From positions 1 through 64,000 of the forward strand of contig JBFXLE010000010.1 of the NCBI GenBank assembly GCA_050173015.1: a stretch of 64,000 bases of DNA, in the 5' to 3' direction. The stretch's first letter is position 1; each line of letters starts with the position of its first letter. The translations under genes and the position numbers were made by a program. Source of the DNA: Calditrichaceae bacterium (lineage in GTDB: Bacteria > Calditrichota > Calditrichia > Calditrichales > JBFXGD01). The notes beneath the pieces are model-generated. The model was not told the DNA's origin and made no database searches. It worked only from the letters and a program-made list of their open reading frames with translations. This document shows, piece by piece, positions 12,623 to 40,762 of this stretch.

Positions 12623-12623
12623 T

Positions 12624-18696: not shown

Positions 18697-18726
18697 ATTT
18701 ACCTCCATAAGGTTAATTTATCTATA

Positions 18727-22780: not shown

Positions 22781-22809
22781 TTTTTTGTTCAGCTTTATAG
22801 TTTAAATTC

Positions 22810-23205
22810 TTACCTGCGGCCCGGTCTTTGTGGCCTGTCCGGTTTCTTGTCTTTCATATACGCTTCATATTTAGCGATTTGATCATCATTTAACAGTTCT
22901 TTAACCCGGTTATCAAAATCCTTTTTTAAATCTTCCATCGCTTCGCGCTGGCTTTCCCGATCGCCTTTATTCTCTTCCATTAATTCTTTCGCGTCCTCAA
23001 AATGCGCCATATACAGATCGGTTATCGCGGATTTCTGCTCATTGGTTAAAGTAAGCGCTTCAGCCAACTCATCTACCATTTTTACAATTTGTTCGGAATC
23101 GGGGAGCTTTGGCGGGCCTTGCCGCTGGGCAAACAAATTGCCGGTAATTATCAGACTTATCAGCATGAGCAACATCGTGTAAGTTCCAGATCTTTGCTTA
23201 ATCAT
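22810..23205 (-). CDS. Secreted helical protein, Spy/CpxP (LTxxQ)-like
   Basis: Signal peptide, LTLTNEQK and LLNDDQ motifs, P/R-rich tail. Confidence 0.7.
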   Translation of the reverse strand: MIKQRSGTYTMLLMLISLIITGNLFAQRQGPPKLPDSEQIVKMVDELAEALTLTNEQKSAITDLYMAHFEDAKELMEENKGDRESQREAMEDLKKDFDNRVKELLNDDQIAKYEAYMKDKKPDRPQRPGRR

Positions 23206-23251
23206 TGTGTTTCTCCTTTTGTTAAAATGATATTTTCTGTTCTATTACTTG

Positions 23252-23278
23252 AGACGTTGATTGGGAAAAAAACTTGTG
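23252..23278 (-). promoter_or_regulatory. ECF sigma promoter motif
   Basis: CACAAG-N16-CGTCT upstream of the CDS starting at 23205. Confidence 0.75.
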
Positions 23279-23317
23279 GTTGGATTTATTTTTTTTATCC
23301 GCGGGTATTTTATAGAT

Positions 23318-23351
23318 AAAATAACCCTTCACTAACAGGTGGTGAAGGGTT
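23318..23351 (-). terminator. Rho-independent terminator
   Basis: AACCCTTCAC/GTGAAGGGTT stem with T tail on the - strand. Confidence 0.7.
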
Positions 23352-23377
23352 AAGTACGTGGTATCTCCGCAACCCGG

Positions 23378-25147
23378 TCAGGAATTGACAAACGGCTGTT
23401 TTTCAAACTTCATGGTTCCGTCTTTTCCTTTATAAATATTTATCCATACACGCCAGTTCTCATCGTCCATATCAGGATAATCCAGCCGGTAATGACTACA
23501 GCGGCTCTCTTTACGCATAATGGACGCTTTGAGCTTCATCTCGGCGCTGATTATCATATTGGCGGTTTCATGCGCCAGTCTCAGCTCATGCAAATCGGTT
23601 GCTTTTAGCATCGGCATGTGATGATCGCGCAACTCTTCGATATAAGCCAAAGCGGCTTTTAACAGATTTTCCTTTTTGATATAAAGTATAAAGTTGGGAA
23701 TCATGATGCCCTGCAAAGTTTGTGTAACCCAGGCGGGGCTATAACCGGCTTCTTTTTTTAATGGCGCGAGAATCTCTTCCTGAACTTTATCCCGTTTTGA
23801 TTTTGAGATTTCAGACAATTCAACATTTTTTGAGTAATCGGCTGCCGCCTCCGCCGCTATGGCCCCCTGAACCGCGGAACCGGCTAAGGAGGATCCAATC
23901 TGTGTATAGATAGCCCCAGCCATATAAGATCCCAGTGCATCACCGGCCGCGTACAAGCCCGGAATATTGGATTCACATTTTTCATTAATCGGCACCAGTC
24001 CTTCGGATTTATGAATGGACATACCGGCGGAAGATCCGCCAACAACGGAACCGCCCATTCCCGGAGGTCCGCCGCCTTCACCATCAGGTCTTTTTCCCCC
24101 CGGCCGGGAACCTTCGCCACGAGGTGGCCTGTCACCTTCCTGTCTGCCATCGCCACCCTGAGGGTGGTCCTGGCTAAACTCGGCAGGCCGGTAAGGTCCT
24201 CCTTCAATTTGTTGAGATTGCCCCATTCCCGGAGGCCCCATCTGAACCGAATTCCCGCTCATATAGGCCATATAATTCAACTCAACACCCAAATCGTGGC
24301 GAATACCTACACCGGTTGTACCCGGTTTTTGTTCAAACATGCCATGCCAGCCGTCATAACAGGCCGCGGCATTGGTCGCCTGACCGGGATGCCCGTCGTT
24401 CCACTCTTTACCGGTGACTTTCGCGCCGATGTTATAGGCCATAACGGTCCCATCATGTGTGAGATCGCAAATGGGAAATCCATTTGGCTTAAAACCACCG
24501 GCCCCTGTACACAGAATAACACTTTTCGCGCGGAAAATGTGGACCTTTTCTTCATCCAAACTAAATCCCGCCGCCCCGGCAATACGGCCATTTTCCTTTA
24601 TAAGATGTGTGATGGTGATCCGTTCCATAACCGGTATATCGCGCTCATCAATGGGTTTGCGGAAAGAGTTATTGTACAGGTTGGAATCAAAGAAACCCCA
24701 TTCCCGTAACTCATTAACACGAGCCAATGAATGTTCAGCCACCTGGCGGGTATAAACCGGATTATTTGTACCAAGGGCAGAGCGGGAGACCGATTCTACA
24801 AACTCATCAAGCGTAAGATTTTCCTTTGATGAATCATACGCGAAAATGCCTTTCGCGAATGGTGTTTGCCCGGATGAGCCTAAGCGGCCTTTTGAAACTA
24901 GCAATGTCCTTGCCCCGGCGTCATGGGCTTTTACGGCCGCGAATAACCCGGCCATGCCGCCGCCTATCACCAAAACGTCGCTGTCTGTTTCGGTAAACTT
25001 CATCTTAGTGATATCCACTTTAGGGCGTTCTGAAGACCAACCGTGTTTTAATCCCACTGACGCGAGGGCCGCTAAACTTAAAGCGCCGCCGGCCATTGCA
25101 AAAAATTGACGTCTGGAAAGATCATTATTTTTACGCGGCTTTTTCAT
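23378..25147 (-). CDS. Tat-exported FAD flavoprotein of the SdhA/FrdA/AprA superfamily
   Basis: SRRQFF twin-arginine signal, DVLVIGGGMAG, ILCTGAGG, IPGLYAAGD, RKESRCSHYRLDYP. Confidence 0.88.
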   Translation of the reverse strand: MKKPRKNNDLSRRQFFAMAGGALSLAALASVGLKHGWSSERPKVDITKMKFTETDSDVLVIGGGMAGLFAAVKAHDAGARTLLVSKGRLGSSGQTPFAKGIFAYDSSKENLTLDEFVESVSRSALGTNNPVYTRQVAEHSLARVNELREWGFFDSNLYNNSFRKPIDERDIPVMERITITHLIKENGRIAGAAGFSLDEEKVHIFRAKSVILCTGAGGFKPNGFPICDLTHDGTVMAYNIGAKVTGKEWNDGHPGQATNAAACYDGWHGMFEQKPGTTGVGIRHDLGVELNYMAYMSGNSVQMGPPGMGQSQQIEGGPYRPAEFSQDHPQGGDGRQEGDRPPRGEGSRPGGKRPDGEGGGPPGMGGSVVGGSSAGMSIHKSEGLVPINEKCESNIPGLYAAGDALGSYMAGAIYTQIGSSLAGSAVQGAIAAEAAADYSKNVELSEISKSKRDKVQEEILAPLKKEAGYSPAWVTQTLQGIMIPNFILYIKKENLLKAALAYIEELRDHHMPMLKATDLHELRLAHETANMIISAEMKLKASIMRKESRCSHYRLDYPDMDDENWRVWINIYKGKDGTMKFEKQPFVNS

Positions 25148-25790
25148 TTTGGTTTAGCTCCCTTGTTTTTATCGGTTTCAAAAAATATGTTTTTAGAACA
25201 AGCATTTCACTGCTCATTGCCAGAATAATGATATAAACGGTCATGGCCAGGTTGGTATGACGACCGAGATCGATCATATGCCATGAGGCAATCGCGATAA
25301 AGATCATTGCCAAAATACCATGAATATATCTCCAGTTTATATAGCTCATAGACAACCTGTCGCGAAAGAATGAAAGTATGCCCAAAGTCAGCATTAAGCT
25401 CCACGCGATTAGCCCTAGTATCACCCCCAAACTGTCAAATGTAGTAATGATTGTGACAAATGCCTCCAGCGGGGTAACACCGGCTTCAAAAAATCGTGGT
25501 ACTACCAAAAGAAACGGGTGAACCAGGAAAACCGCTACTGCCGTATATCCAATGAATTTGTGGTATTTAACAATCCTGTTCATCTTGAACAATTTTACAG
25601 CCTTTCTGTTACTTCTTGTGAGAAAAAAAAGTCCAAGCATCAGGGGAAAGGCAAGAATGAACAAAATGGACAAGGATTCTTTCAAAACTGTTCGACGAGC
25701 GAAGTCTCCCAGGATATATATCATTAAAGGGAAACCAACAAAAAATCCCGCTACAGGAACAAACCAATCTTTCTTAGTATATTGCATCAT
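25131..25790 (-). CDS. Ferric reductase-like transmembrane (heme b) protein
   Basis: About 6 TM helices with paired His (YHKFIG...LVHP; WRYIHG...SWH); no FAD/NAD-binding domain. Confidence 0.8.
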   Translation of the reverse strand: MMQYTKKDWFVPVAGFFVGFPLMIYILGDFARRTVLKESLSILFILAFPLMLGLFFLTRSNRKAVKLFKMNRIVKYHKFIGYTAVAVFLVHPFLLVVPRFFEAGVTPLEAFVTIITTFDSLGVILGLIAWSLMLTLGILSFFRDRLSMSYINWRYIHGILAMIFIAIASWHMIDLGRHTNLAMTVYIIILAMSSEMLVLKTYFLKPIKTRELNQNEKAA

Positions 25791-25794
25791 TTTT

Positions 25795-26010
25795 TTACCC
25801 CCAGGAAACGATGACCGGAATCGATTTTTCCGGCGAAATGGTTATAGCGTCAACCGGACAATACATCCGGCAAAGATGACAGATTTGGCAATCGGCGGGA
25901 TACATGATAACCGCTTTTTTCGAATCGGGATCAAGACGAATCACATCTGTCGGGCAGGTCTCTACGCAAGTTCCGCAACCGATACATCCGTTTATGCTTT
26001 CTATTGACAT
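25795..26010 (-). CDS. 2x[4Fe-4S] ferredoxin (AprB-like)
   Basis: CIGCGTCVETCP and CQICHLCRMYCP. Confidence 0.92.
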   Translation of the reverse strand: MSIESINGCIGCGTCVETCPTDVIRLDPDSKKAVIMYPADCQICHLCRMYCPVDAITISPEKSIPVIVSWG

Positions 26011-26062
26011 TTATTTTATTCCTTTCCTTTTTACCGGAATAATTTAGTTGCTTTATTAATTA

Positions 26063-26089
26063 TGACGTTTTTTTGGGAAATCTCTTGTG
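26063..26089 (-). promoter_or_regulatory. ECF sigma promoter motif
   Basis: CACAAG-N16-CGTCA upstream of the ferredoxin. Confidence 0.72.
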
Positions 26090-26230
26090 GCTTACTTTGA
26101 GTTTTTTTTAAAAAAAAACCTTCTTTCCGCCGGTTTGGGATGTTCTTATTGTTGTGGTTCACCGGTATTAGCGTCCCGGGTGCCGTTAAGCGGGATTATC
26201 TAATCCGTGATGCTTCCGTTCTATGTATTT

Positions 26231-26464
26231 TTATTCCTGAGGTTCTTTGAAAACATGTTTTGCGGCAGGCCCGTAGATTTTTTCAGCACATGTTTGACAG
26301 ATCCCATGAGAAATGCGTTTTTCCAGCTGCAATTTTGAGATATCCATTAAAAACCGCGCCACATTAATGGGTATCCATTTATTATTAATTCTTACAGAGT
26401 GGCAGCCGGCGCACATTGTTATCATGTCTTTGTGGAGGCCCATGTTGGTTGTTTTTTCTCGCAT
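26231..26464 (-). CDS. Small CxxC...HGICxxC putative metal-binding protein
   Basis: MCAGCHSVR...W...ISHGICQTC, a motif usually seen at the C-terminus of PAS/REC sensor proteins. Confidence 0.65.
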   Translation of the reverse strand: MREKTTNMGLHKDMITMCAGCHSVRINNKWIPINVARFLMDISKLQLEKRISHGICQTCAEKIYGPAAKHVFKEPQE

Positions 26465-26554
26465 AATTGGTCTTCTTCCCTGTTAGACACCTTGAATTTT
26501 ATTTCCTGAAAAACATGCGCCGTATGGAATTTATTTGATACCGGTGATGTGGTT

Positions 26555-26584
26555 AAAAAGCCCTCCAAATGGCGGATGAAGGGC
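26555..26584 (-). terminator. Probable terminator
   Basis: GCCCTCCA/TGAAGGGC stem with T tail on the - strand. Confidence 0.55.
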
Positions 26585-26623
26585 AGTATAAATTTCTAAT
26601 GTTTTAGTGATCTTTCGTCGCTA

Positions 26624-27391
26624 TTATTTTTCTTCAACTTTTATTATTTGATTAAAAACCAGCTCAAAATCGAGTGTATTGAGCCTGTCACCTTCGATGG
26701 CGGATACGTCCGGTACCATAAGTCTTACTTCTTTCACTTTTTCTTTTAATTCCGGAAAAGTCACGACATATGTTAATTTGGCATGGTGGTATATGGTTTC
26801 TTCTTTTTCGGGTTTGTTATCAGTCTCTTTTGATTTTTTTAATTTCTTTACCCAAACCACATTAGGGCCAAAATCCCAGAAAGGATCATGTTTTGCATGC
26901 CTGATTCCAATTCTCGTCCCTCTTCCTTTGTGCCACGCGCGGTATGGGTACATGGGATAATAGGACCAGCCATAGTTCATGCCAAAATAATAATGAATTT
27001 CCGGATCTACGATCACATACTCGCCATTGGTTTCAGTCTTTTCACCAAAAGTCATTGTAAGCGGTTTAAGCTGATTACCAAAAGAGTCAATCAATCGTGT
27101 TTGCGCCGGTTTAATCGATATTTTGGTTTCACGATTATTCTGAACTGTAATCCAGAACGTTGGGTGGATTATTTCGCCATATGGCTCAGGCAGCATTGCC
27201 GCCTGGACAGTTACTTCAATGTCCTCCATTCTCTGGGTCACAGAACCTGATTGTAAATCGATTTCCGCTTCGTTCACCTGGCTGCCGGGTTCCAAGGAAA
27301 CCGTTTGTTGTATACCGGCGCAACCGGCTAAAATAAACGATATGGCCAGGATGACCGCTGTGAAATGTTTACGATTGAATATGCCGGCCAT
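26624..27391 (-). CDS. Hypothetical lipoprotein
   Basis: Lipobox LAGC; AAGGAG RBS; internal Tyr/Pro-rich segment. Confidence 0.78.
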   Translation of the reverse strand: MAGIFNRKHFTAVILAISFILAGCAGIQQTVSLEPGSQVNEAEIDLQSGSVTQRMEDIEVTVQAAMLPEPYGEIIHPTFWITVQNNRETKISIKPAQTRLIDSFGNQLKPLTMTFGEKTETNGEYVIVDPEIHYYFGMNYGWSYYPMYPYRAWHKGRGTRIGIRHAKHDPFWDFGPNVVWVKKLKKSKETDNKPEKEETIYHHAKLTYVVTFPELKEKVKEVRLMVPDVSAIEGDRLNTLDFELVFNQIIKVEEK

Positions 27392-27433
27392 GATTTGCTC
27401 CTTTCTTCAGTTGTTTGATTGATCAGACACATC

Positions 27434-27952
27434 TTAAGTTTTATGCTTTAATTTTTGATATAGGCACACTCCACCCACAATGTCCCCGGAATTGTCAAAT
27501 AATGGAGATCCGGTCAGAGCGATAAGGAATATCAGTCCATTACTGAGTTGTAAATATCTTTTAAATTTTAAACCGATAAAAAATCCTTTTACCGCAAGAT
27601 CTTCCCATGAAGATGGCATGATATCACCTCGCGGATTTGGTTTTCGAAACAGTGGGGCAAATGTATCCAGGGGTTCACCAATCGGATCTGTTTCTTTTCT
27701 TCTCAGGTCGTTATTTGCGGTAGTATCGCAGAATATGACTTCCCGGAATAAATCGAAGGCGATAAGAGAAACCTTTCTGTTTGATGTTGTTTCGAAAAAA
27801 CTTTCTCTTACTAAAAAATGTTTTGTTTTAAGAAATGTTTTGAAATCATATTTTTGTGATTGACGCGGGGTAAGTGTGAGCGGATTGTGACCGTAAAGAA
27901 TGCCATACCCTGGATTCTGAATAAGTTGATCATTCATGTGAGACTCCTTCAT
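27434..27952 (-). CDS. Hypothetical protein with PAS-like C-terminal region
   Basis: LIAFD...VIFCDTTA and LTGSPLFDNSGDIVGGV resemble PAS/PAC strands. Confidence 0.55.
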   Translation of the reverse strand: MKESHMNDQLIQNPGYGILYGHNPLTLTPRQSQKYDFKTFLKTKHFLVRESFFETTSNRKVSLIAFDLFREVIFCDTTANNDLRRKETDPIGEPLDTFAPLFRKPNPRGDIMPSSWEDLAVKGFFIGLKFKRYLQLSNGLIFLIALTGSPLFDNSGDIVGGVCLYQKLKHKT

Positions 27953-28055: not shown

Positions 28056-28081
28056 GGTATTTGCCTTAAATATTACAAAAC

Positions 28082-28113
28082 AAAAAAGCCCTTCATTGTT
28101 GTTACTGAAGGGC
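28082..28113 (-). terminator. Rho-independent terminator
   Basis: GCCCTTCA/TGAAGGGC stem with T6 tail on the - strand. Confidence 0.75.
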
Positions 28114-28148: not shown

Positions 28149-29534
28149 CTAATTCACGTAATTCATTACCGTACTATAGCGGCTGTTCACATGGGAGATT
28201 AAATAATTCACCGCCGTATTAAAATCGCTGTCAGACTCCAGGAATGTGTACTTATCCTGCTCGCCATTAGCGCCAATTACATACTCAGAAATCAGATTCT
28301 GGTAATATTGGTATTTGCTTGTCATTTTTGCCGGTTCAAACGCGGTCTCAACAACTTGTCTCAGATAAGTTTTGTAGCTGTTTAAATATTGCTCATCATC
28401 CAACAAATAGCGTATTAGAGGCCAGGAACTATTGACTTCACTACAGGAAACCGACAGAGCTCCCGTTTGTTTCCCTGTTTGCAGGGCTTCGTTGTTGTCC
28501 CAGGGGATCCATGTTAACCAGCTATGTTCAGGATCATTATAAAGATAATAATTATGAGGCATCCGGCCATAGGTATCCCAGTTTTGAACAGCGATATTGA
28601 CAGTAAGCCATTTTAGAAATCCATTCACATTAAAAACCGTTTCAAGGGAAGCCCTCCAGGAAGCGGCATTGGTTGTTCTTTCGGATGAATGCAAAACATC
28701 AAAAAGCGCTTCAACATCCGACCAATCACCGTCTTCATTGGTCTTCTTCTCAAAATAGGACGTGCTGAATGTATTGGCGGCAAAACTGGCGCCGGTGCCT
28801 TCCGGTTTGTAAAGGTTCCCGTCATTTTCTGTAAACTGCTCTTTTATCACCGTGTCATCCACAATTTCAATCATTGTATAAAGCCCAAAATATGTGGGTC
28901 CGTCACCATGATCGATATAAATACGGTAAAAGGCGGTTTGCGGCGCGGGTACACCAAAATCCCTGAAAATTTCCGGCACAACTTTTTCACGGAGTAATGA
29001 TTCGTCATCGAAATTACTGGAAAGAGAAAGTTCTTTAAACCCATAAAAGCGCTGATTGGTGATCTGCGGAATCTCATCTTCATAATAGTCAATATTAAGC
29101 CTTAATGGCAGTTTCCATATTCCACTTGCCCAGGTGGATTGTAAGCTGGAATTTCCTTTAAAACGAACACCAACCTGATACCATTCGATACCATCTAAAA
29201 AAACAGAGCAGGGGACATAAACCGGATTCTCGTTCGAGTCATCCGCGGGCGCTGTGACACGTGATCCGAAACTACCATAGTTCTGTTCCATATCATCCAG
29301 CATTACCTGCCAATTTTCGCTATCTATTACAAGATCCAAACGGTTCACCCGGTTTTGAGGAAAAACAATATCATAGTCGGGATCGGCGCTTTTCCCGTGT
29401 GTGGTTTCGGTCCAGTCAGGAGTCTCAAATTCCGTATCAATGACCGGCTGATTTTCGGTGCTGTTTGTACTTGTGTCTTCACAACTAATCAGAATTGACA
29501 AGAACAGCAGTACAGATAGAATTTTGTTATACAT
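28149..29534 (-). CDS. CotH kinase family lipoprotein
   Basis: Lipobox LISC; VGVRFKGNSS, NWDTY...HNYYLY...WIPWDNNEA. Confidence 0.9.
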   Translation of the reverse strand: MYNKILSVLLFLSILISCEDTSTNSTENQPVIDTEFETPDWTETTHGKSADPDYDIVFPQNRVNRLDLVIDSENWQVMLDDMEQNYGSFGSRVTAPADDSNENPVYVPCSVFLDGIEWYQVGVRFKGNSSLQSTWASGIWKLPLRLNIDYYEDEIPQITNQRFYGFKELSLSSNFDDESLLREKVVPEIFRDFGVPAPQTAFYRIYIDHGDGPTYFGLYTMIEIVDDTVIKEQFTENDGNLYKPEGTGASFAANTFSTSYFEKKTNEDGDWSDVEALFDVLHSSERTTNAASWRASLETVFNVNGFLKWLTVNIAVQNWDTYGRMPHNYYLYNDPEHSWLTWIPWDNNEALQTGKQTGALSVSCSEVNSSWPLIRYLLDDEQYLNSYKTYLRQVVETAFEPAKMTSKYQYYQNLISEYVIGANGEQDKYTFLESDSDFNTAVNYLISHVNSRYSTVMNYVN

Positions 29535-29562
29535 GTCCTTCTCCTTATGGGTATAAATTTTC

Positions 29563-31224
29563 TCAATTTACAATCACTATTGTATCGGAAAGGATAAAAC
29601 TTTTGTAAAGGCTCCCTCCCGCATACGTTCCGTCCTTATAGAGCCCGTCCGTAGAAGTTCCGGAACAACTGCCACCTGTGTAAACATTGTATGAGGTTCC
29701 TTTAACAAGTGCTGATGATGAAAAGGCAACGGACTGGTATGATTTTGCGGGACCAAAGGTTAAAATCTCTTCACCGCTTTGGGATTCCATATGTATTAAT
29801 GTCCCGGCGTCTTTTATTGAGTTGAAGTTTACAAGAATACAATATTGTTCCGATGATGCGCCTGGAGCTTTTGTCATTCCGGAATAACTACCCGCCGCTA
29901 CCAGAAATCCACCGTCCATCTCAAACGTACCATCATAATCCAACGCGCTGCTTGATGTGTCTGAAGAACCGCTGACGAGTAAAGTCCCATCGGTCATTAA
30001 TATTGAAGAGTTTGCGTCAATGCCATCACCAACCGCGTTTACTACGATATACCCTCTGTTAATATAAAGATAGCTGCCGCTCCGCGCCGCTAAGTTTATG
30101 CCGTCGTCACTTGAGACAATGTGTATCTCACCGCCGTTTACGGTAATATCCCCATTGACGCTTTCAATACCTTCAAATGACTTCGCAATGTTAATATCCC
30201 CGCCGTTTATAAACAGATCGTAATCGGCATGAATAGCATCATCATCGGAAGAAATAGTCAGGATACCATCATTGATTGTGACCAGGCCATCGGAATGAAT
30301 TCCATCATCACCGGAATTTATTGTGATTGTACCTCCATCAACAGTCACACTTATAGATCCATTGATTCCTTGTCCACCGGATGATATAGTAATTTCTCCG
30401 GAACCGATATCCACATCTTTTTCAGCGGCTATGGCTTCACCACCGGCAGTTATGTCAATGACACCATTCTCAATAGTGATGTATCCCATTGAAGCGTCAT
30501 CGGCATTATCGGATTTCAAACCAATACCGGCGGCATCCACAGTGATATTTCCATCTTTCACAATCAGATAATCTTTTCCCCTGACACCATCATCCGCCGC
30601 GTGGACCCGGATTGTTCCGCTTGTAATTATCAATCCGTCTTTACCGGCAATACCGTCATTAAAGTTTCCGTTGACCGTTAAGCTGCCAGTTCCATAGAGA
30701 GTAAGATCAGCTTTACTGAAGACAGCGGCATTGGGTTCAGCCACATCCGTGTTTGCAAAAGTATATGAAGATCCGTCCGTCAAATAATTTTCTGAATTAT
30801 CCGCAAGAACGATCATTACCTTGGCTGCCTTCTCAACATACACAGGCGCGTATGTCGAGCAATTGATATTCGCGCCATTTAAAATGAGCCTGACAATTTC
30901 TTTATCATCGGTATTCACTATTATCCGGCCATCTTCAAGTGAACCGCTTAAATTATATGAACCCGCCGATGTAATCGCTAAGATGCTTCCCTCCGCGATG
31001 GCGCCGTTTCCATCAACAGTAATCCTGTTTCCATTGAACCTGATCGGAATTTCTTTAGAACTGTCCCAGATATAATCTCCCGCATCATCATGACTTTTAG
31101 CATCATCAACAATTGTGGTTTCGCTTCCCTCTGCCTCATCTTCCGCATTTATAGAATTTTCACAGGCGATGAATCCTGTAGTTACTAAACTAAATATCAG
31201 CAATAAATTTATTTTGTTATACAT
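29563..31224 (-). CDS. Carbohydrate-binding domain (Cthe_2159/DUF4353) beta-helix lipoprotein
   Basis: Lipobox FIAC; ITSAGSYNLSGS, VRLILNGA, repeated DDGI/DDAIH/EGIES/DGID beta-helix rungs. Confidence 0.88.
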   Translation of the reverse strand: MYNKINLLLIFSLVTTGFIACENSINAEDEAEGSETTIVDDAKSHDDAGDYIWDSSKEIPIRFNGNRITVDGNGAIAEGSILAITSAGSYNLSGSLEDGRIIVNTDDKEIVRLILNGANINCSTYAPVYVEKAAKVMIVLADNSENYLTDGSSYTFANTDVAEPNAAVFSKADLTLYGTGSLTVNGNFNDGIAGKDGLIITSGTIRVHAADDGVRGKDYLIVKDGNITVDAAGIGLKSDNADDASMGYITIENGVIDITAGGEAIAAEKDVDIGSGEITISSGGQGINGSISVTVDGGTITINSGDDGIHSDGLVTINDGILTISSDDDAIHADYDLFINGGDINIAKSFEGIESVNGDITVNGGEIHIVSSDDGINLAARSGSYLYINRGYIVVNAVGDGIDANSSILMTDGTLLVSGSSDTSSSALDYDGTFEMDGGFLVAAGSYSGMTKAPGASSEQYCILVNFNSIKDAGTLIHMESQSGEEILTFGPAKSYQSVAFSSSALVKGTSYNVYTGGSCSGTSTDGLYKDGTYAGGSLYKSFILSDTIVIVN

Positions 31225-31252
31225 TCATACCTCTACCATTATACCGTTCATT

Positions 31253-31930
31253 CTAAATCTGTTCTTCGTCAAAGAAGAGATTGATATTTTTTACACCATG
31301 TGAATTATCCAGGGCGCTTATAAATTCCGGGTTCTTATCCTTGTTCTTCAACCTGACATAATAAGATAGCTCCATTATACCCTGATTTTCTATGGTTCGT
31401 GTGTTGATCACCTTATACCGCCGGCAATATTTCTCCAGGATTGGCATGTAAGATTGGGGATCGCCGCCATTTGGCTGAAAAGAGAACTGCAGTAAATAAT
31501 CATCCTGCCGCGGAGAAGTAATTTTCGATTTTGCCAGTAACAAAATAATTATCCCGACAAACACGGACCCAAAGATGGCAAGTTTATAATATCCCACACC
31601 GGATGCCATACCGATCGCCAGCGCAAAAAAGATAAAAACTATATCCTGAGTATCTTTAACGGCCGTCCTGAAACGAATAATTGACATGGCGCCAACCAGT
31701 CCGAACGCGCGGGCAAGATTGTTACCAATAACCATGATAACAATGGCTGTGATCATTGTAAGAATGATCATTGAATTAACAAAAGCCGCCGAATACCCGG
31801 CTCCGCGATAGGATTTTTGATAAATATAGGCGATAAAAAGCCCGCAACACAAAGCGACGATAATGTTTTTCATTATTTCAAAAATTGATACAGGAAACAG
31901 GTTTAGACTTTGCATTTCATTAAACATCAC
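31253..31930 (-). CDS. DUF4956 membrane protein
   Basis: VIGNNLARAFGLVGAMSIIRFRTAVKDTQD signature. Confidence 0.92.
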   Translation of the reverse strand: MMFNEMQSLNLFPVSIFEIMKNIIVALCCGLFIAYIYQKSYRGAGYSAAFVNSMIILTMITAIVIMVIGNNLARAFGLVGAMSIIRFRTAVKDTQDIVFIFFALAIGMASGVGYYKLAIFGSVFVGIIILLLAKSKITSPRQDDYLLQFSFQPNGGDPQSYMPILEKYCRRYKVINTRTIENQGIMELSYYVRLKNKDKNPEFISALDNSHGVKNINLFFDEEQI

Positions 31931-32705
31931 AGCACTCCCTGCTTATAATCACATTCCGCCTCCTTACGCGTTTATTTTTAAACTCCGCGTGTGTTTCCAG
32001 AGACATGGTGTATTTTGACAATGCCTGCCGGTTGAAGCCATATTTGCTGATAAGCGAAATGATCCAGTTGGGCAGACTTCCAAAAAATTTTATTTCAAGA
32101 ATGAAGTGGTTGGTCAATGTAGATTTAACCTTATCTTCATTATAAAGCTGCTCCAGATCAGGAAAAATAACACTGCGTAGATTTTTATCAAATGTTAAAC
32201 GCAAAGAAGGATCCATTTTTCCAATAAAAGCTTCACGATCGTAAATAACCAAAACGACCGGACGCAGATTTTTTATGTAATAATAATAAAGAAATTTCCG
32301 CGCGTCTTTTTTCTCCGCCCCATTTCCACTAAACGACAGTACAAAATCATCTATGCGTCCTGAGGCTAGTGTTTTGGCAACATCAGTGTAATAAATCGGC
32401 ACCCTGATTTTCGATATACAATTTGTGTTTTTGTGTTTTATTTCCAGAAAAGTTATACTCTTTTTTGAACACTTATCATAGCCTCTGATTCGGTATTTAT
32501 TTCTGATTTTAACACCATCCAGTTTTTCGTTATAACAGGTAAACTGCGGTGTATCATAATAGATGCTTCTTACCGTGTATTGTCCGTCGCCGTGTCTTTT
32601 TGCAAAATTATCCAGCTCCATATAAGGACTCAGCTCTGTCCTGAGCTTATCAATAAGCGTGTTAGGGACTAAATATTTATATTCATATCTCGAATCCATG
32701 GTCAT
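31920..32705 (-). CDS. VTC-domain (polyphosphate polymerase/CYTH-like) protein
   Basis: RYEYKY, YTVRSIYYDT, KYRIRGY, FLEIK, LRLTFD, ILEIKF, SKY. Confidence 0.92.
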   Translation of the reverse strand: MTMDSRYEYKYLVPNTLIDKLRTELSPYMELDNFAKRHGDGQYTVRSIYYDTPQFTCYNEKLDGVKIRNKYRIRGYDKCSKKSITFLEIKHKNTNCISKIRVPIYYTDVAKTLASGRIDDFVLSFSGNGAEKKDARKFLYYYYIKNLRPVVLVIYDREAFIGKMDPSLRLTFDKNLRSVIFPDLEQLYNEDKVKSTLTNHFILEIKFFGSLPNWIISLISKYGFNRQALSKYTMSLETHAEFKNKRVRRRNVIISRECCDV

Positions 32706-32707
32706 TC

Positions 32708-33766
32708 CTAATTTAAAATAATCTGTTTCAGGTAATCCGGAATGGACAGCGGGCCGCAGTTAATTTTTGCCGGCGTAAACAAACCGGAAATAAAGTCATT
32801 TGATATTGAATTAACAGTCGCCAAAACGATAATACACTGTTTCCCGCCGATGAGCTGTAATACCGGCTGCGTCGTCTGAACTTCACCCGATAATCGTGAT
32901 TTTAGTTCAGGTGAATCAAATAAAACAGTACCGCCCTTCGTGACAAAAGCAGCGTTCTCCAGCGGAACAGGGATACAAGCGACCGCCGAATCAAAATTTG
33001 ACAAGACCAGAAGCGTGTCATCGGAAAATGACCTTTCAACGCGGCCACCAAATGGCGAAATAATCAGATTTTGCGAATTTATCTGTTGTTTTAAAAAGGA
33101 AATCTCATTTTCAACCGCGTTAATTTGTTTAGTCAATTTGTGTATTTCCTCAACTTTCTCACCACTCATGCTCGATTCCAGTTCAGCCTGCCGAACGTTT
33201 ACGGCTTTTTCCAGGGTATTTAATTCATCGGCGGCTATCTGGTATTCTTCCCCGGCGATTAGATCTTTATCAAACAATTCCTTAAGCCGCGCGGTAATTT
33301 TTTTCTGTTTATCTAATTCCGATTGGGCCATGGCCAGCCTTTCTGCCGCCTCCCGCACTTCCGTTATTTTGTCGCCACTCATGCCTGCTTTTAGGGTTGC
33401 TTTTAATATTTGGAGTTCACCTTCCAACTGAATAAGGTTTTCATGCTTATTGCTGGAGTAGATGATACCAAGCGTATCTCCCTTCGCCACAATCTGTCCG
33501 TTTGAAAGATCCGGATTCAGGGTTAAAACGAATGATTCGCCCCTTTCGAACGAAGTAAGCTGATATGAATTATTTATTCCGCTGCTAAAATTAACCGTGC
33601 TGTTCAAAATCTCCCCGCCATTACCGCGGGACAATACCCATTGTTGAGCGGGCAAAATTTTTGCGACACTGTCTATGGAATAAGGCACTTTAATTGGCAA
33701 AAAGAAAATACCCAAAACAGTGAGAACAATGATGAGGATACTTAGATAACGATTATTTTTTTTCAA
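32708..33766 (-). CDS. HlyD-like membrane fusion/adaptor protein
   Basis: N-terminal TM, GQIVAKGDTL lipoyl half-motif, long coiled coil, IISPFGG; TTG start. Confidence 0.75.
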   Translation of the reverse strand: MKKNNRYLSILIIVLTVLGIFFLPIKVPYSIDSVAKILPAQQWVLSRGNGGEILNSTVNFSSGINNSYQLTSFERGESFVLTLNPDLSNGQIVAKGDTLGIIYSSNKHENLIQLEGELQILKATLKAGMSGDKITEVREAAERLAMAQSELDKQKKITARLKELFDKDLIAGEEYQIAADELNTLEKAVNVRQAELESSMSGEKVEEIHKLTKQINAVENEISFLKQQINSQNLIISPFGGRVERSFSDDTLLVLSNFDSAVACIPVPLENAAFVTKGGTVLFDSPELKSRLSGEVQTTQPVLQLIGGKQCIIVLATVNSISNDFISGLFTPAKINCGPLSIPDYLKQIILN

Positions 33767-33834: not shown

Positions 33835-33861
33835 AGACGTTGTTTGGTGAGAAAACTTGCG
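33835..33861 (-). promoter_or_regulatory. ECF sigma promoter motif
   Basis: CGCAAG-N16-CGTCT upstream of 33766. Confidence 0.75.
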
Positions 33862-33899: not shown

Positions 33900-33932
33900 A
33901 AAAAAGAGCCCTTCATCAATGAACAAAGGGCC
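33900..33932 (-). terminator. Probable terminator
   Basis: GCCCTT/AAGGGC stem with T tail on the - strand. Confidence 0.55.
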
Positions 33933-33961
33933 CTGGCAAATGATCTTAATAGGGTATTGAT

Positions 33962-36283
33962 TTATTTCATCAATATCATCCGTTTTGTTTCTGAAAGGGA
34001 TCCACTCGTCAGCATATAAAAATAAATGCCGCTGGGCATATTTTTAGCATCCCATTGCATGACATATGTTCCTGCGGAGAGTTGTTTGTTGACAAGTGTT
34101 GCCACCTGCTGCCCTGTAATATTGTAGATTTTTAAAGATGTAAAGTTTGAAGAGGGCAACTTGAATGAAATATTCGTAGTTGGATTAAATGGATTGGGAT
34201 AATTTTGCGAAAGGTTAAACTGATCAGGTAGTTCTGATATCTGATCATCAGGAATACCGGTGATTCCGTCATTGTTCTCTGCTGAAAAAGTGGGACTCAT
34301 TTGCACAAAAGATCCTGTCCCATTTGGATAACGGCCGGTTGATATATCGTCTGTTTGTTCTCCAAAACTCACTTCATCAATAATTGTTGTATCACTACCC
34401 GATAAGTAAATAGTTTCACCGGAGCTTGAAATTTTTAGATCCGCATGTAATCCTGCCTGATCTTCATCTTTATCCGCCCAGACAATTAAATATCCCTTCG
34501 CAGAAATTGTTGTATCAGGAAAGGCCCAGAGAGACAGATCATTGCCATCATCTGATAGAAAGTATCCATTTAATGAAATATCCTCATCGGAATTATTATA
34601 GAGTTCAATCCAGTCGTCGTATTCTCCATCCTGGTCTGTTACTGTGGTCTCATTCGAAGCCATAAATTCATTGATAACCAATTCAATAGCTAATGGATCG
34701 GAACTGGTGGCAATAGTATAGAATTCATATTGTGCCCGTTCAGGTGAAAACTGCCCTGCATTGTCATTTTCGGCATAGATATAATATTGAACCTCCGAAT
34801 TGTTGATTTCCAGGTATGTACCATACGTGCCATCATTGGCGGATCCGTCACCATGTGCGCCGTCATCATACATTTCTACTAAGCTAAAGGGAGCTATTGT
34901 TTCATTTCGATAACCCAGATATACCGCGTTTCCATCTGCCACGGAAGCAGAGATTGCAATGGTTTCGTTAACCGCGGGACTTTCATCCGACAATGCAATA
35001 CTTGAAATCGTGGGTGCTGTTTCGGTGAAATCAGAAAGCGCCAAAAGGTAACTACTTCTTCCATTCATCAAATTGGTGATGCCGGGAAAAGTCATGCTTT
35101 GCGGACCAAAACCGCTAATTATATCGGAAGTTAAATTATTTAGAAAATCATTGTAGGTAAAGAATTTATTTACATCAGCCCGAACGGAGGCGTCGATTAA
35201 TGATTGAAATGTTAACGCGGTGTCATAGTACTCCCCATTGTCAAAATTTTCTAAAAGCATGGTTTTGTAATGAGCGAGGTACATACGCTTGTACATTGGT
35301 ATGCTTAGCAATTGTTTAACTAATGGGAAATTTGAGTCAGAAGAATGGAGCAAGTGACTCATCTGCTGTTTCGAAGATGTCGTGTTTAGCGTTGAAGAGC
35401 CTGTTTGTGAGAATACCCCAAAAGACTCATTCAAATCCCAAACTATCGGCAAAAATTGTTGATACTCACTTCGGTATAAATAATAATTTTGAGAAAATAT
35501 GCCAATGTAACTATCCAGGTTTACGATTGCATTGTCGAAGGCAAGCATCCACAAGGCTCTGTCCACATCTAAAATATTTTCAATGTCTGAGATATTGTAG
35601 CTTAATGTATCACAAAGGTCTATCAACTCCCGCCAGCCATAATCCGATTTCATTTCATAGGCATCGTAATAATCTGTGCTGTCTTGACCAAGGTATACCA
35701 GATTGGGGTAATTACCTGATTGTGTAGGTGCGCCATCAGGCGGGCTGCAATCGAAATAGGCATTGTCGTTAGAGCCAAATCGGCTCTTAGCAAATTTCTT
35801 TGAAATGGATTCGGTGTTGGTGTAGAGGCCAATTAAGGTTCCGTTCACGTAAAGGTTGGCAAAATTGGAAAGCGGCGCATCCATGTATTTTCTGATGATG
35901 TAGAAACCCAAAACATCGCGCAAAAACGAGGGATCGTTGTATCCATTGGCCAATTTGATATCAGTGTATCCATCATATTCATGGTCTTTGTAAGTATCCA
36001 GCTCGATGTGCCATGGATTTTTTACCTGATCGGCCCTATACGAACTGTTGCCTTTGTATTTTACGCCAACGCTATCGAATACTTCTCCATTGATAGTAAC
36101 ACTTTGAGCCATTATGTAATCTCCGTCTTCGGAATATTGAGCATCCAAAAGTGCATCCCAATTGCTTTCCGCAAACGTAATTTCAATCGTTTGAATGGTC
36201 TCTAAATCGTAAAAATCCTGACTATAGATATTTGTTGATATTATTAGAAAAACAAAAACAGTTAAAATGTAGATATTTTTCAT
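33962..36283 (-). CDS. Secreted CotH kinase with lamin-tail domain and C-terminal T9SS-type-A/FlgD-Ig secretion domain
   Basis: Signal peptide; VGVKYKGNSS, NLDSY...NYYLY...PIVWDLNE; MYDDGAHGDG..DGTY; LVINEFMASN...DWIELYN (LTD); QNYPNPFNPTTNI...SGIYFY. Confidence 0.9.
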   Translation of the reverse strand: MKNIYILTVFVFLIISTNIYSQDFYDLETIQTIEITFAESNWDALLDAQYSEDGDYIMAQSVTINGEVFDSVGVKYKGNSSYRADQVKNPWHIELDTYKDHEYDGYTDIKLANGYNDPSFLRDVLGFYIIRKYMDAPLSNFANLYVNGTLIGLYTNTESISKKFAKSRFGSNDNAYFDCSPPDGAPTQSGNYPNLVYLGQDSTDYYDAYEMKSDYGWRELIDLCDTLSYNISDIENILDVDRALWMLAFDNAIVNLDSYIGIFSQNYYLYRSEYQQFLPIVWDLNESFGVFSQTGSSTLNTTSSKQQMSHLLHSSDSNFPLVKQLLSIPMYKRMYLAHYKTMLLENFDNGEYYDTALTFQSLIDASVRADVNKFFTYNDFLNNLTSDIISGFGPQSMTFPGITNLMNGRSSYLLALSDFTETAPTISSIALSDESPAVNETIAISASVADGNAVYLGYRNETIAPFSLVEMYDDGAHGDGSANDGTYGTYLEINNSEVQYYIYAENDNAGQFSPERAQYEFYTIATSSDPLAIELVINEFMASNETTVTDQDGEYDDWIELYNNSDEDISLNGYFLSDDGNDLSLWAFPDTTISAKGYLIVWADKDEDQAGLHADLKISSSGETIYLSGSDTTIIDEVSFGEQTDDISTGRYPNGTGSFVQMSPTFSAENNDGITGIPDDQISELPDQFNLSQNYPNPFNPTTNISFKLPSSNFTSLKIYNITGQQVATLVNKQLSAGTYVMQWDAKNMPSGIYFYMLTSGSLSETKRMILMK

Positions 36284-36355: not shown

Positions 36356-37576
36356 TTACTCATGCCTGAGCGCCTCAATAGGATCCAGAGCCGCGGCCTT
36401 ACGCGCCGGATACCAGCCAAAAAAGACTCCGATAAACGAGCAAAAAAGGAATGACAATAAAATGGACTCCATTGTAATCAGCACCGGCCAGGCCATGATA
36501 TTTTCAACAGTGTTCGAAGCCAGTATACCCATGACCACACCAATAACGCCTCCGGTTACACTCAACAAAACAGCTTCAAGCAGGAACTGCATTAATATAT
36601 CTTTGCCTTTGCCGCCAATAGCCAGTCTAAGTCCTATTTCACGGGTGCGTTCGGTGACGGAAACATACATGATATTCATGATACCAATACCGCCCACAAC
36701 CAAAGATATCGCGGCGATTGATCCAAGCAGCACCAACATCATTTCGGAAATGGATCCAAATGTACTGATCAATTCAGCCTGAGTCCTTATTTCAAAATCA
36801 TTGTCTTCACTATCCTTTAATTTATGTGAAAGACGCATATTCTCTTCAATCTGCGCGGTTGCCTCATCGATGTACTCTTCAGAGACAGCGGAAGTGACAA
36901 TCGCCCGCAAATAGGTCTGCCGTGTAATTCTTTTCATAACGGTGGTGTAAGGCGCCAGCATGATATCGTCCTGGTCCTGGCCAAAGGTATTTTCTCCTTT
37001 TTCTTCCAGTACACCGATTACTTTAAACGGTATTTTTTCAAAGCGGATGGTTTGTCCGATCGGATCAATATCGTCGCCAAATATATTCTCGACAACAGTC
37101 TGTCCAATCACGACAACTTTTGCGGCGTTGTTTATTTCCTGGGATGAGAATGAACGGCCGCTGGCGATATCATACTTTTTGATATAGTTATATTCCTCGT
37201 TTCCACCATTTATTTGAGTCGGCCAGTTATTCGTTCCAAAGATAACCTGACCGGAACTTTCAACTTCAGGCGATACAGCTTCTAACAGACTGCTGTTTTC
37301 ACGAAGAATGTCCACGTCTTTCAGTACCAGGGTTTGCGACATTGCACGTCCCTGCTGAACCCCGCCCCTGTCTTTGCTTACAGGCATTATGTTAATAAGA
37401 TTTGTACCCATGGAAGATATTTTTTCCTGGATACTGGCATTGGATCCTTCTCCGATAGCAAGCATGGCGATAACCGATGCCACTCCTATAATGATTCCCA
37501 GCATCGTGAGAAACGAACGTGTTTTGTTTCTTTGAATAGCTGCTATGGCAATTTTAATTATAGTTAATATTTTCAT
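36356..37576 (-). CDS. MacB/FtsX-type ABC transporter permease
   Basis: RSFLTMLGIIIGVASVI, GGIGIMNIMYVSVTERTREIG, PARKAAALDPIEALRHE. Confidence 0.95.
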   Translation of the reverse strand: MKILTIIKIAIAAIQRNKTRSFLTMLGIIIGVASVIAMLAIGEGSNASIQEKISSMGTNLINIMPVSKDRGGVQQGRAMSQTLVLKDVDILRENSSLLEAVSPEVESSGQVIFGTNNWPTQINGGNEEYNYIKKYDIASGRSFSSQEINNAAKVVVIGQTVVENIFGDDIDPIGQTIRFEKIPFKVIGVLEEKGENTFGQDQDDIMLAPYTTVMKRITRQTYLRAIVTSAVSEEYIDEATAQIEENMRLSHKLKDSEDNDFEIRTQAELISTFGSISEMMLVLLGSIAAISLVVGGIGIMNIMYVSVTERTREIGLRLAIGGKGKDILMQFLLEAVLLSVTGGVIGVVMGILASNTVENIMAWPVLITMESILLSFLFCSFIGVFFGWYPARKAAALDPIEALRHE

Positions 37577-37602: not shown

Positions 37603-38370
37603 TTATGCATCAACTAATGTTTGAAGAATGGCTTCTTCTTCTTTTAAATAATCAAGCGCCCGCAGGGCATTTGTTTTTGTCTCTACCTGTATATCGTTAA
37701 TTATTCGGCCGTCCCGGAAAACAACATTTCTTTTTGTAAAATCCGCGATATCGGGCTCATGAGTTACAAAGACTATGGTTATCCCGTTTTCATTTAACTC
37801 CTGGAGCAGAGCCATAATCTCGTATGAAGTCCTGGTGTCCAGATTACCGGTTGCTTCATCGGCCAGAATCAGTACAGGATCGTTTACCAGCGAACGGGCG
37901 ATGGCCACACGCTGCTGCTGTCCGCCGGACATTTGATTGGTAAGGTGATTCATACGGTCCGCCAGACCGACTGCCTCCAACGCGTACTTCGCTTTTTGGC
38001 GGCGTATTTTTGCGTTAATCTCAGGATTGTACATCAACGGCAATTCCACATTTTCCAGGGCAGTGGTTCGCGGTAACAGGTTATACGACTGAAACACAAA
38101 ACCAAGTTTAGTACTGCGTATCTCCGCCAATTGGTTTTTATTAAGTGATTTTACGTTCGTACCATCAAGCCGGTAGTCGCCTGATGTTGGCCTGTCGAGA
38201 CAACCAAGAATATTGAGCATGGTTGATTTGCCGGATCCGCTGGCGCCCATAATGGCCACAAATTCACCCGCATTTATTGTTAGGTCAACACCGCGCAGCG
38301 CACTGACTATTTCAGTCCCCACGGGGTAATCTTTTTGAAGATTTTCTATTTCAATTATTTTATTATTCAT
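37603..38370 (-). CDS. MacB/LolD-type ABC transporter ATP-binding protein
   Basis: [37 protein letters not shown]. Confidence 0.95.
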
Positions 38371-38430: not shown

Positions 38431-39708
38431 TTACCTGCCCGGGCGTCCCGGACCTTCCTGGACAAACGGGCTTTGTGTTTCTTCGCTTTTTGTAACACTA
38501 TCGTCCGTGTCGCCGCCCATTTCCATGGAAATTATAACCTGGTCACCTTCATTCAATCCCGAAATTATTTCAACGCTTATACCATCCGTTAAACCGGTTT
38601 CTACTTCAACAGGCTTGATAAGCGATCCGTCTTTAACCCAAACACGTTTGATGTTTTCAGGTTGCTCATTGGGAGCTTCAGTTTGTCCCGCTGTTTGCTG
38701 TGAACCGCTGGCAGGGCGTTGCGGACGTTCACTCTCCGGAAGTCTGTCGAAATAGCCGGCCATTTGCTCGCGCTCAGGTGTAAAACGCAAGGCTTTTCCC
38801 GCTACCACCAGCGCGTCTGTTACTTCTTCGATATAAACGGTGATACTGGCCGTCATGCCCGGTTTTAATTTTAGTTCGGGGTTCCGCGCCGAAACGATCA
38901 CGGTATATGTGATAACATTTGATGTTTCCGTTGGTTGTAACCTTACTTCTGTAATAACACCTGCAAAAGTTTCATCGGGAAAAGCGTCTACAGTAAATTC
39001 CACCCGCTGTCCTTCTTTTACCATACCGATATCTGCTTCATCCACATCGGCTTCAACCTGCATTTCCGAAAGATCATTGGTGATAGTAAACAATTCAGGC
39101 GTGCTCATACTGGCTGTAACGGTTTGCCCTTCTTCAACCGCGCGATTAAGCACAAGCCCGTCGATAGGTGAATAAATATTGGCATAAGCCAAATTTAGTT
39201 GTGCTTTATTTAAATTGGCATTGGCCGATTTTAAGCCTGCCTGGCTTTTCTTATAATTATATTTGGCCAGGTCAAAATCGCTTTGTGACAACAAACCTTT
39301 TTCAAAAAATTCTTCATTCCGCTCAAAGCCGGCTTTTTGATATTCAAGTTCAGCCTGCGCATTGAACAAATCCGCTTCAGCGTTTTCCAGGCTGGATTGA
39401 AGTGTGGATTTGTCGAGTTCGGCAATCAATTGCCCCTTTTCGACTTTCGAATTAAAATCCACATAAATCTTTTCAATAACACCAGAAACCTGGGTTCCAA
39501 CAACTACCGTATTTGTTGCTTCCAGGGTTCCGGTAGCGGTGATGGTGTTGTTTACCGCACCTTTCGCTACGGTTGCTGTCTCAAAAACGTATTCGCTCGA
39601 ATTGATTCCCTCATACAAAAAGGCAAAAGCATATGTGGCTAAAAGAAGGACAGCCATAATGGTAATGATTCTTTTGTACTTTAGTAATATATTTCTCATA
39701 ACATTCAA
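38431..39708 (-). CDS. MacA-like efflux periplasmic adaptor subunit
   Basis: VGTQVSGVI...VDFNSKVEKGQ, IYSPIDG, VDEADIG, LKPGMTA. Confidence 0.93.
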   Translation of the reverse strand: MNVMRNILLKYKRIITIMAVLLLATYAFAFLYEGINSSEYVFETATVAKGAVNNTITATGTLEATNTVVVGTQVSGVIEKIYVDFNSKVEKGQLIAELDKSTLQSSLENAEADLFNAQAELEYQKAGFERNEEFFEKGLLSQSDFDLAKYNYKKSQAGLKSANANLNKAQLNLAYANIYSPIDGLVLNRAVEEGQTVTASMSTPELFTITNDLSEMQVEADVDEADIGMVKEGQRVEFTVDAFPDETFAGVITEVRLQPTETSNVITYTVIVSARNPELKLKPGMTASITVYIEEVTDALVVAGKALRFTPEREQMAGYFDRLPESERPQRPASGSQQTAGQTEAPNEQPENIKRVWVKDGSLIKPVEVETGLTDGISVEIISGLNEGDQVIISMEMGGDTDDSVTKSEETQSPFVQEGPGRPGR

Positions 39709-39741: not shown

Positions 39742-39768
39742 AGACGTGAATTCAGAAAAAAACTTGCG
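39742..39768 (-). promoter_or_regulatory. ECF sigma promoter motif
   Basis: CGCAAG-N16-CGTCT upstream of the macA-like gene. Confidence 0.75.
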
Positions 39769-40435: not shown

Positions 40436-40762
40436 CTAATTAATATCAAAAATAGTGCTTTGATTTTTTTCCAGGTTTAAATCGTTGCTCAGCAATTCAA
40501 TTAATTCCGTCCGCGTATTGGCTTGTTCCGCCTGATTAGAATCGTTCAAATACCAGAATGCTGTACTTAGATTCAAAACCACTAAAGCGGTAAGCATGGC
40601 CGGTCTAAGAATGGCGAAGAACACATTTTGTTGATTCTGCTTTGCTTCCAGCCGGGCTTGCACACGTGTATAGAAATACGGATTTGGCGGTAATTTTTCA
40701 GCCTGATCAAATTGCTCCAGAGTCCTGGAAATTTCATGCTCGATTTTATCTTTTTTATTCAT
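40436..40762 (-). CDS. Putative anti-sigma factor (single TM)
   Basis: PNPYFYTRVQARL motif then TM; directly downstream of the ECF sigma. Confidence 0.75.
   Translation of the reverse strand: MNKKDKIEHEISRTLEQFDQAEKLPPNPYFYTRVQARLEAKQNQQNVFFAILRPAMLTALVVLNLSTAFWYLNDSNQAEQANTRTELIELLSNDLNLEKNQSTIFDIN

Follow-up and report, generated by a model that had tools for sequence, protein, structure and literature searches.

What donates phosphate to secreted CotH kinases outside the cell is, to our knowledge, an open question, and one operon of a Calditrichaceae bacterium raises it together with another: what a periplasmic adaptor does in an operon that encodes no pump. The operon lies on the minus strand at 28149..33766 of the 64,000-nucleotide stretch analyzed here (the window; positions 1 to 64,000 of contig JBFXLE010000010.1, assembly GCA_050173015.1), where five confirmed open reading frames (ORFs) encode, in order, an adaptor, a VTC-domain enzyme, a DUF4956 membrane protein, a Cthe_2159 beta-helix protein and a CotH kinase-fold protein (CotH1). 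The initial annotation had proposed that VTC, DUF4956 and the HlyD-like adaptor form an export conduit that supplies polyphosphate (polyP) or another phosphoryl donor to CotH. We find that these three proteins are indeed a dedicated, conserved trio, while the link to CotH is looser than proposed. From the sequences, we put the probability that the trio is a synthesis-coupled polyP exporter acting through TolC, with CotH using polyP as donor, at roughly 0.38, and we consider it a little better than an even bet that the trio exports polyP, whatever its use.

Conservation was assessed in two sets of genomes. Among 86 genomes of the phylum (Calditrichota), 37 of which encode VTC, a genome-wide search at E ≤ 1e-20 found the adaptor family in 32, all of them VTC-positive (32/37 VTC-positive, 0/49 VTC-negative). 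Thirty-nine VTC loci taken from 36 other genomes of the phylum comprise 31 with the adaptor, one cut by a contig end and seven divergent types, three of these beside glycosyltransferase genes. A scan of GTDB genomes with the DUF4956 alignment returned at least 593 relatives, and the best 79 loci, which are weighted to close relatives and repeat eight of the phylum loci, come from Ignavibacteria, Bacteroidales, Zixibacteria, Marinimicrobia, Latescibacterota, WOR-3, Anaerolineae and others. Sixty-four of these best 79 carry the adaptor; five are truncated by contig ends and 10 are without it (5 WOR-3/Stahlbacteria, 3 Anaerolineae, 1 unclassified and 1 Melioribacter, which has the adaptor family elsewhere in its genome). 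The order adaptor-VTC-DUF4956 is fixed in all 94 loci that hold the three genes (about seven loci are in both sets), and the adaptor lies directly upstream of VTC wherever the contig permits. The initial annotation had named beforehand the conservation of the adaptor gene with the cluster as one of the points on which its proposal turned, and on this point it stands. Cthe_2159 follows DUF4956 directly in only 1 of the 39 phylum loci, that of the same-genus relative, and is a local accessory; the conserved core is the trio, and the five-gene form is local. As first noted for the operon, we found no gene for an ATP-binding cassette (ABC), resistance-nodulation-division (RND) or major facilitator superfamily (MFS) pump in it, nor one conserved beside the trio in the 118 loci of both sets (3-16 kb each). 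No relative was found on viral contigs.

The VTC protein is present as a single copy in the genome, has no hydrophobic segment and is predicted to be soluble. All 10 PDB matches of its profile are Vtc4, Vtc3 or Vtc2 chains (top match Vtc4, 2e-15). The nine residues reported to bind triphosphate and Mn in Vtc4 in the accessible text of two sources (K200, R264, R266, K281, Y359, R361, E426, S457 and K458; 10.1101/2023.01.27.525886; PMC9911596) are all kept (K10, R72, R74, K90, Y155, R157, E204, S230 and K231), at positions nearly invariant among 131 VTC sequences; positions were counted on the PDB profile alignment, which ends near residue 450, and S457/K458 were placed by motif and position. 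According to the available part of Martinez et al. (PMC4641920), triphosphate tunnel metalloenzymes (TTMs) carry out many reactions on one scaffold, and a four-glutamate acidic patch tells hydrolases from Vtc4. Three of the four patch sites are basic here, like their counterparts in Vtc4, by motif-register mapping: R6 (R/K in 129/131), K99 (131/131) with R101 (122), and K206 (131/131); the fourth, E8, is acidic. On balance the sequence favors a polymerase over a hydrolase without proving it. The genome also encodes PPK1, so VTC would be unneeded for bulk cytoplasmic polyP, which suggests that it serves another purpose.

The model of the DUF4956 protein (predicted local distance difference test score, pLDDT, 71) has five predicted helices (residues 16-134) and an ACT-like C-terminal domain. 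This architecture is MgtC/SapB-like, yet the similarity misses the family cut-offs (MgtC, 21.5 bits against a cut-off of 31.4; PRK09977, 28.8 against 214). The Gly/Ala-rich helix 70-90 carries R74 (99/104), R86 (104/104) and R88 (103/104), followed by K/R92, and this basic helix may be likened to the VTC pore helices by analogy, not by homology. In a Chloroflexi-labelled family (P0041-P0065), a hydrophobic leader and a PF06439 domain, probably extracellular, are fused to the N-terminus of DUF4956; this fusion suggests an N-out topology that would place the ACT domain in the cytoplasm. Two VTC/DUF4956 fusions (P0038, P0039) were left unused, being singletons without the invariant SKY end of VTC that look like frameshift artefacts.

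The adaptor has no Pfam adaptor match, and its NCBIfam adaptor matches fall below the cutoff (best 8e-8). Its AlphaFold model (pLDDT 83) matches MacA and EmrA at E-values from 1e-15 to 5e-14, and among its 72 structural matches at E ≤ 0.001 those listed are all adaptor chains or pump entries. Sequence and model predict an N-terminal membrane helix as anchor, a beta-barrel, a lipoyl domain, a long alpha-hairpin and a family-specific beta insert carrying the conserved R75. The hairpin tip is of the RLS type, with R160 in 83/83, L164 in 78/83 and S171 in 63/83 sequences; the protein of this operon has A171. RLS is the TolC-binding motif of adaptors, and the accessible part of one study reports that Ser-to-Ala is partly tolerated in MacA (PMC3391258). 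The adaptor keeps an RLS-type TolC-binding tip. Its closest named homolog, from a Calditrichaceae bacterium, is 85% identical, and we regard the adaptor as a distinct family, below all curated cut-offs and tied to VTC-DUF4956.

Anaerolineae have a single membrane. VTC occurs in 26 of 121 sampled Anaerolineae genomes, and 25 VTC loci of this class, taken with 1.5-kb flanks (cut short in three by the end of the contig), all lack the adaptor; three whole Anaerolineae genomes searched for the adaptor gave partial generic matches only. We built a FastTree phylogeny of 120 VTC sequences with midpoint root, leaving out eleven duplicate loci and weak or short matches. A single clade of 102 sequences (support 0.81) takes in all adaptor-bearing VTCs, and the adaptor-less groups nested within it are five Anaerolineae (1.0), six WOR-3 with one unclassified (0.997) and one Melioribacter. 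Loss of the adaptor upon the move into a host with a single membrane is consistent with a role at the outer membrane. The Calditrichaceae genome itself encodes 13 TolC genes (26 domain matches), none of them on the operon's contig.

Some genes recur around the trio. Phytase-like/SdiA-regulated proteins account for 2 of 61 and 7 of 39 neighbors scanned, and one of about 250 aa (YjiK) stands directly after DUF4956 at L042, L050, L073, L078, L082, L097, L118, L125 and L126; upstream, the recurring genes are those for CYTH proteins (at L042 and L057) and a Pit transporter (at L082). Divergent adaptor-less VTC-DUF4956 pairs (L061-L063, L065, L067, L068) lie by CotH-beta-helix proteins or in glycosyltransferase/flippase clusters, with glycosyltransferase genes adjoining at L065, L067 and L068; an action of these pairs on surface polysaccharide is suggested.

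The genome encodes two CotH proteins, both within an island headed by an extracytoplasmic function (ECF) sigma gene. CotH1 has a lipoprotein-like signal (Cys18), as does the Cthe_2159 protein (Cys21, lipobox read from sequence). Like the spore kinase of B. cereus (PDB 5JD9/5JDA), CotH1 keeps the catalytic residues (D320, N328 and D346 align with those of 5JD9) and the equivalent of W245 (W345); unlike it, the forms here are exported, and no spore coat is known in the host. In the available text of a review (PMC12189002), Tyr142 and Trp245 form the adenine sandwich of CotH; the Tyr142 site is Lys243 in CotH1 and is variable in 68 homologs, with a one-residue offset between the 5JD9 chain and the paper numbering inferred from W245. 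Lys in place of Tyr142 was considered as a polyP-adapted signature and rejected, as it occurs in 11/48 VTC-linked and 7/20 VTC-negative copies. CotH2 bears a C-terminal sorting domain of the type IX secretion system (T9SS), the genome encodes SprA, and CotH2 is likely secreted to the surface. Across the phylum, CotH is found in 57/86 genomes: in 37/37 VTC-positive against 20/49 VTC-negative ones, with a mean of 4.2 CotH matches in VTC genomes against 1.55 in VTC-negative CotH genomes, counts that come from related and in many cases incomplete genomes. CotH is also present in all three VTC-bearing control genomes. In this 86-genome set VTC implies CotH, and CotH does not imply VTC.

We identified intergenic gaps of 2, -11, 28 and 28 nt in the operon, flanks of about 195 nt on each side, and hairpins with U-tracts on both borders (Table 1), in agreement with the initial annotation of five tightly coupled genes with one promoter and one terminator. 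The promoter motif, CAAG[AT]TT-N13-CGTCT, has 6 copies in the 4.3-Mb genome, 5 of them in the ECF island on the same strand, a count that is partly circular, as the motif was built from the island sites themselves. These five precede the probable anti-sigma gene, macA, the adaptor gene, ORF 27952 and ORF 23205. Other spacers (12-21 nt) give 0-2 matches per spacer length. The motif also lies upstream of the adaptor gene in two relatives (L034 and L046), which lends it independent support, and its ECF identity is inferred from the adjoining sigma gene. A generic sigma-70 promoter and terminator scan performed at chance level (31 vs 29 and 10 vs 9). Because the motif recurs, an ECF sigma gene heads the island and hairpins bound the operon, the five genes probably make up one unit of an ECF regulon to which a MacAB pump and the T9SS-tagged CotH2 also belong. 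This MacAB-type ABC pump is encoded 2.6 kb upstream, with a terminator and a promoter in between. We rejected its MacB as the cognate pump of the trio: it has its own MacA, stands behind a terminator, and occurs near few trio loci, in the three closest of which it is again accompanied by its own MacA.

Table 1. Features of the five-gene operon and the upstream part of the ECF island (window coordinates)
Feature	Position	Strand	Details
Periplasmic adaptor (HlyD/EmrA/YbhG-like)	32708..33766	-	352 aa; fold, sub-cutoff NCBIfam matches
Soluble VTC/TTM-domain enzyme	31920..32705	-	261 aa; Pfam VTC 8e-46
DUF4956 membrane protein	31253..31930	-	225 aa; Pfam DUF4956 1e-15
Cthe_2159 beta-helix protein	29563..31224	-	553 aa; Pfam Cthe_2159 8e-99
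CotH kinase-fold protein (CotH1)	28149..29534	-	461 aa; Pfam CotH 5e-66
Intrinsic-terminator-like hairpin and U-tract at operon end	~28080..28113	-	z -3.2
ECF-type promoter motif CAAGTTTT-N12-CGTCT ahead of operon	33835..33859	-	motif scan; putative sigma assignment
Terminator-like hairpin between upstream macAB-cotH2 unit and operon	33905..33934	-	hairpin and U-tract
Second CotH (CotH2), lamin-tail domain and T9SS-type C-terminal sorting domain	33962..36283	-	773 aa
MacB	36356-37576	-	upstream unit
ABC ATPase of MacAB-type pump	37603-38370	-	upstream unit
MacA	38431-39708	-	adaptor of the separate pump; same promoter motif at 39742-39766
Helical protein, weak Metal_resist match	39848-40426	-	likely island regulator with sigma/anti-sigma
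Probable anti-sigma	40436-40762	-	motif copy upstream at 40785-40809
ECF sigma	40816-41370	-	heads ECF island; likely island regulator

The rest of the putative ECF regulon (21527-27952) comprises unannotated ORFs of 172 and 255 aa, a small ferredoxin-like ORF, a ferric-reductase-like membrane protein, an FAD oxidoreductase with a Gly/Pro-rich insert, an LTXXQ-like protein and an Lcl_C (DUF1566) lipoprotein. At the island edge, within 41513-43437, lies a transposase-like ORF of the tyrosine type associated with repetitive extragenic palindromes (REP; 42850-43437), and partial copies downstream of it contain tandemly repeated 60-bp units in frame (9.9 and 4.0 copies). In one relative (L066, G011:C147:1-5707), an ECF sigma gene, a small ORF and a gene homologous to ORF 39848-40426 directly precede a divergent VTC-DUF4956 pair without an adaptor, where the contig breaks off after DUF4956; the regulators are the same there and the VTC type differs.

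Gene order, co-occurrence, the adaptor and ACT-like folds, the conserved residues and the repeated promoter motif are the computed parts of the model that we propose, in which the trio most plausibly works in the manner of a VTC complex divided over separate proteins and connected to a TolC duct. On the cytoplasmic side, VTC would polymerize the terminal phosphate of ATP; a DUF4956 oligomer would form a pore in the inner membrane, and a TolC from another part of the genome would be docked by the adaptor, letting the polyP chain leave the cell past both membranes. Chain growth would be the driving force for export, which would explain an operon without a pump; in single-membrane hosts the VTC-DUF4956 pair would work without the adaptor. 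Surface CotH enzymes may take polyP as phosphoryl donor, and since a TolC conduit skips the periplasm, the likely user would be the surface-tagged CotH2 or a surface-exposed CotH1. What enters the model by inference is the polymerase activity, the assembly of DUF4956 into an oligomer with a pore, every interface, the TolC partner, the location of CotH, and the donor and the acceptor. Taken as a whole, a pump-less tripartite secretion in which a Vtc4-type polymerase drives polyP to surface CotH by way of a pore resembling MgtC, an adaptor of its own and TolC seems to us rather unlikely.

The trio belongs neither to the VTC complex family nor to the canonical tripartite pumps, because a defining feature fails in each. 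With the yeast VTC complex (Vtc4/Vtc3/Vtc1; PDB 3G3Q, 7YTJ, 8I6V, 9UMG) it has in common a TTM catalytic domain with the Vtc4 residues, and an enzyme paired with a membrane protein that bears conserved basic residues. In contrast to yeast, the bacterial enzyme is soluble and stand-alone, lacks an SPX domain and Vtc1-type helices, and keeps E8, and its membrane partner, which resembles MgtC and ends in an ACT-like domain, is joined by a periplasmic adaptor; profile and Foldseek searches matched DUF4956 to no VTC chain. Tripartite efflux and type I secretion systems (MacAB-TolC, EmrAB-TolC, HlyBD-TolC, YbhG-type) share the adaptor fold and RLS-type tip, whereas neither a TolC nor a pump of the ABC, RND or MFS type is encoded in this operon; in the model its adaptor also differs by the beta insert and by a C-terminal helix that appears to replace the membrane-proximal domain.

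Several observations weigh against export of polyP through TolC to CotH. The DUF4956 membrane part had no PDB match in the profile and Foldseek searches, the VTC channel included. The polymerase reading, which the initial annotation had set against a triphosphatase, is favored by the nine Vtc4 residues and three patch sites but not by E8 of the CYTH ExExK motif, which by motif-register mapping is acidic (E/D in 129/131) where Vtc4 has Thr. Five phylum genomes with VTC have no adaptor-family member, and five WOR-3/Stahlbacteria genomes that encode TolC and a VTC-DUF4956 pair lack the family as well; the WOR-3 group argues against a strict requirement for the adaptor. No TolC gene was found in the 118 loci with a home-made profile (from 13 proteins of the genome itself, with no positive control among the loci; the first CotH profile was likewise home-made), nor in Pfam scans of 61/67 and 39/55 picked neighbor proteins, so the duct would be borrowed from elsewhere in the genome. 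The genomes are kin and not independent, which overstates the significance of co-occurrence. The five-gene operon did not hold up as the conserved unit: besides the local Cthe_2159 gene, CotH is within the retrieved DNA of only 12/31 phylum adaptor loci (and 26 of the best 79 GTDB loci). CotH also occurs in 20 VTC-negative phylum genomes, one of them single-contig, and no tested CotH active-site position separates VTC-linked from VTC-negative copies, W345 being kept. An adaptor-TolC conduit would bypass the periplasm and would suit a surface-exposed CotH, not a periplasm-facing lipoprotein, which weakens the initially proposed delivery to lipoprotein CotH; CotH also shows no polyP-specific signature. 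In the accessible text of Raju et al. (10.1101/2024.04.20.589940), deletion of the homologous genes in S. intermedius left Pel and aggregation largely intact, and the authors expect polyP to remain cytoplasmic.

Some of these observations fit other readings as well. PolyP could be exported as a surface polyanion that serves metal or calcium binding, or matrix or polysaccharide modification under envelope stress, with CotH a co-regulated user of another donor. CotH stands beside 12/24 adaptor loci of at least 12 kb and exists without VTC, phytase-like/SdiA-regulated proteins, CYTH proteins and a Pit transporter recur as neighbors, adaptor-less VTC types adjoin glycosyltransferase genes and, in the accessible accounts, Gram-positive pel operons, and the operon and MacAB appear to have an ECF-type regulon in common. 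The presence of CotH in every VTC genome of the phylum and in all three controls, and the higher number of CotH matches with VTC, stand against a mere co-regulated role, and we think this reading unlikely.

It is equally improbable, in our view, that the trio exports a cargo other than polyP, with VTC hydrolyzing or converting triphosphate to energize or load DUF4956 and ATP, inorganic triphosphate (PPPi) or a small phospho-compound being released for CotH. Such a cargo would suit E8, kept here unlike in Vtc4, the versatility of the TTM scaffold and the W345 of the adenine sandwich, but not the basic residues at three of the four hydrolase patch sites or the nearly invariant S457/K458 pair. 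Finally, nothing might be exported: VTC would be a cytoplasmic enzyme, DUF4956 a membrane regulator resembling MgtC that senses through its ACT domain, and the adaptor would serve an unlinked ABC or MFS pump. The weak MgtC/SapB similarity, the ACT-like domain, the lack of a channel homolog among the matches, the expectation in the accessible part of Raju et al. and the loss of the adaptor in a TolC-bearing lineage are in keeping with this. We doubt it all the same, as the adaptor family never occurs without VTC in the 86 genomes and lies directly upstream of it where the contig permits, and among the neighbors of the trio no pump gene is conserved, MacB being present in few loci.

Elsewhere in the window, translations point to type I restriction-modification genes with ATPase and nucleotidyltransferase-like ORFs at 6273-21177, probably a defence island. 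At 59997-62173, a small protein with repeated KCGEGKCG motifs has two ORFs behind it, which we take to be DUF692-like and DUF2063-like.

The initial annotation called VTC-DUF4956-CotH sets widespread yet mechanistically uncharacterized, and both the distribution over many phyla and the printed accounts agree. In the parts of Whitfield et al. (10.1101/768473) and Raju et al. that were available, cotH, a polymerase gene and DUF4956 adjoin Gram-positive pel operons, with function unknown and little effect of their deletion, and such genes are listed in NELoc-2 of C. perfringens (available part of PMC2879425); a B. thetaiotaomicron DUF4956 gene stands beside DUF2490 (PMC10434189, likewise in part). 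The same three families are linked in the pel-associated set, for which these passages describe no adaptor, and no pel genes lie near the trio studied here. Raju et al., in the same accessible text, encountered the set nowhere but at pel operons, whereas we find it away from them in many phyla. We found no description of the trio in the literature searched (most subscription journals and bioRxiv supplements fall outside it), no paper there that joins the VTC domain with DUF4956, no title on bacterial VTC-coupled export, and no paper joining CotH kinase, polyP and secretion in Bacteroidetes. In print, as far as these sources show, the cotH-VTC-DUF4956 set figures only as a set of unknown function in Gram-positives.

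Two orphan families, bacterial VTC and DUF4956, would gain a function if bacteria had a polyP exporter coupled to a polymerase, and such an exporter would be a bacterial counterpart of the eukaryotic VTC machine. If the model is true, the trio would add a new class of inner-membrane component to TolC systems, a partner that is neither ABC, RND nor MFS, and polyP would be an ATP-free phosphoryl donor that explains how secreted bacterial kinases are fuelled.

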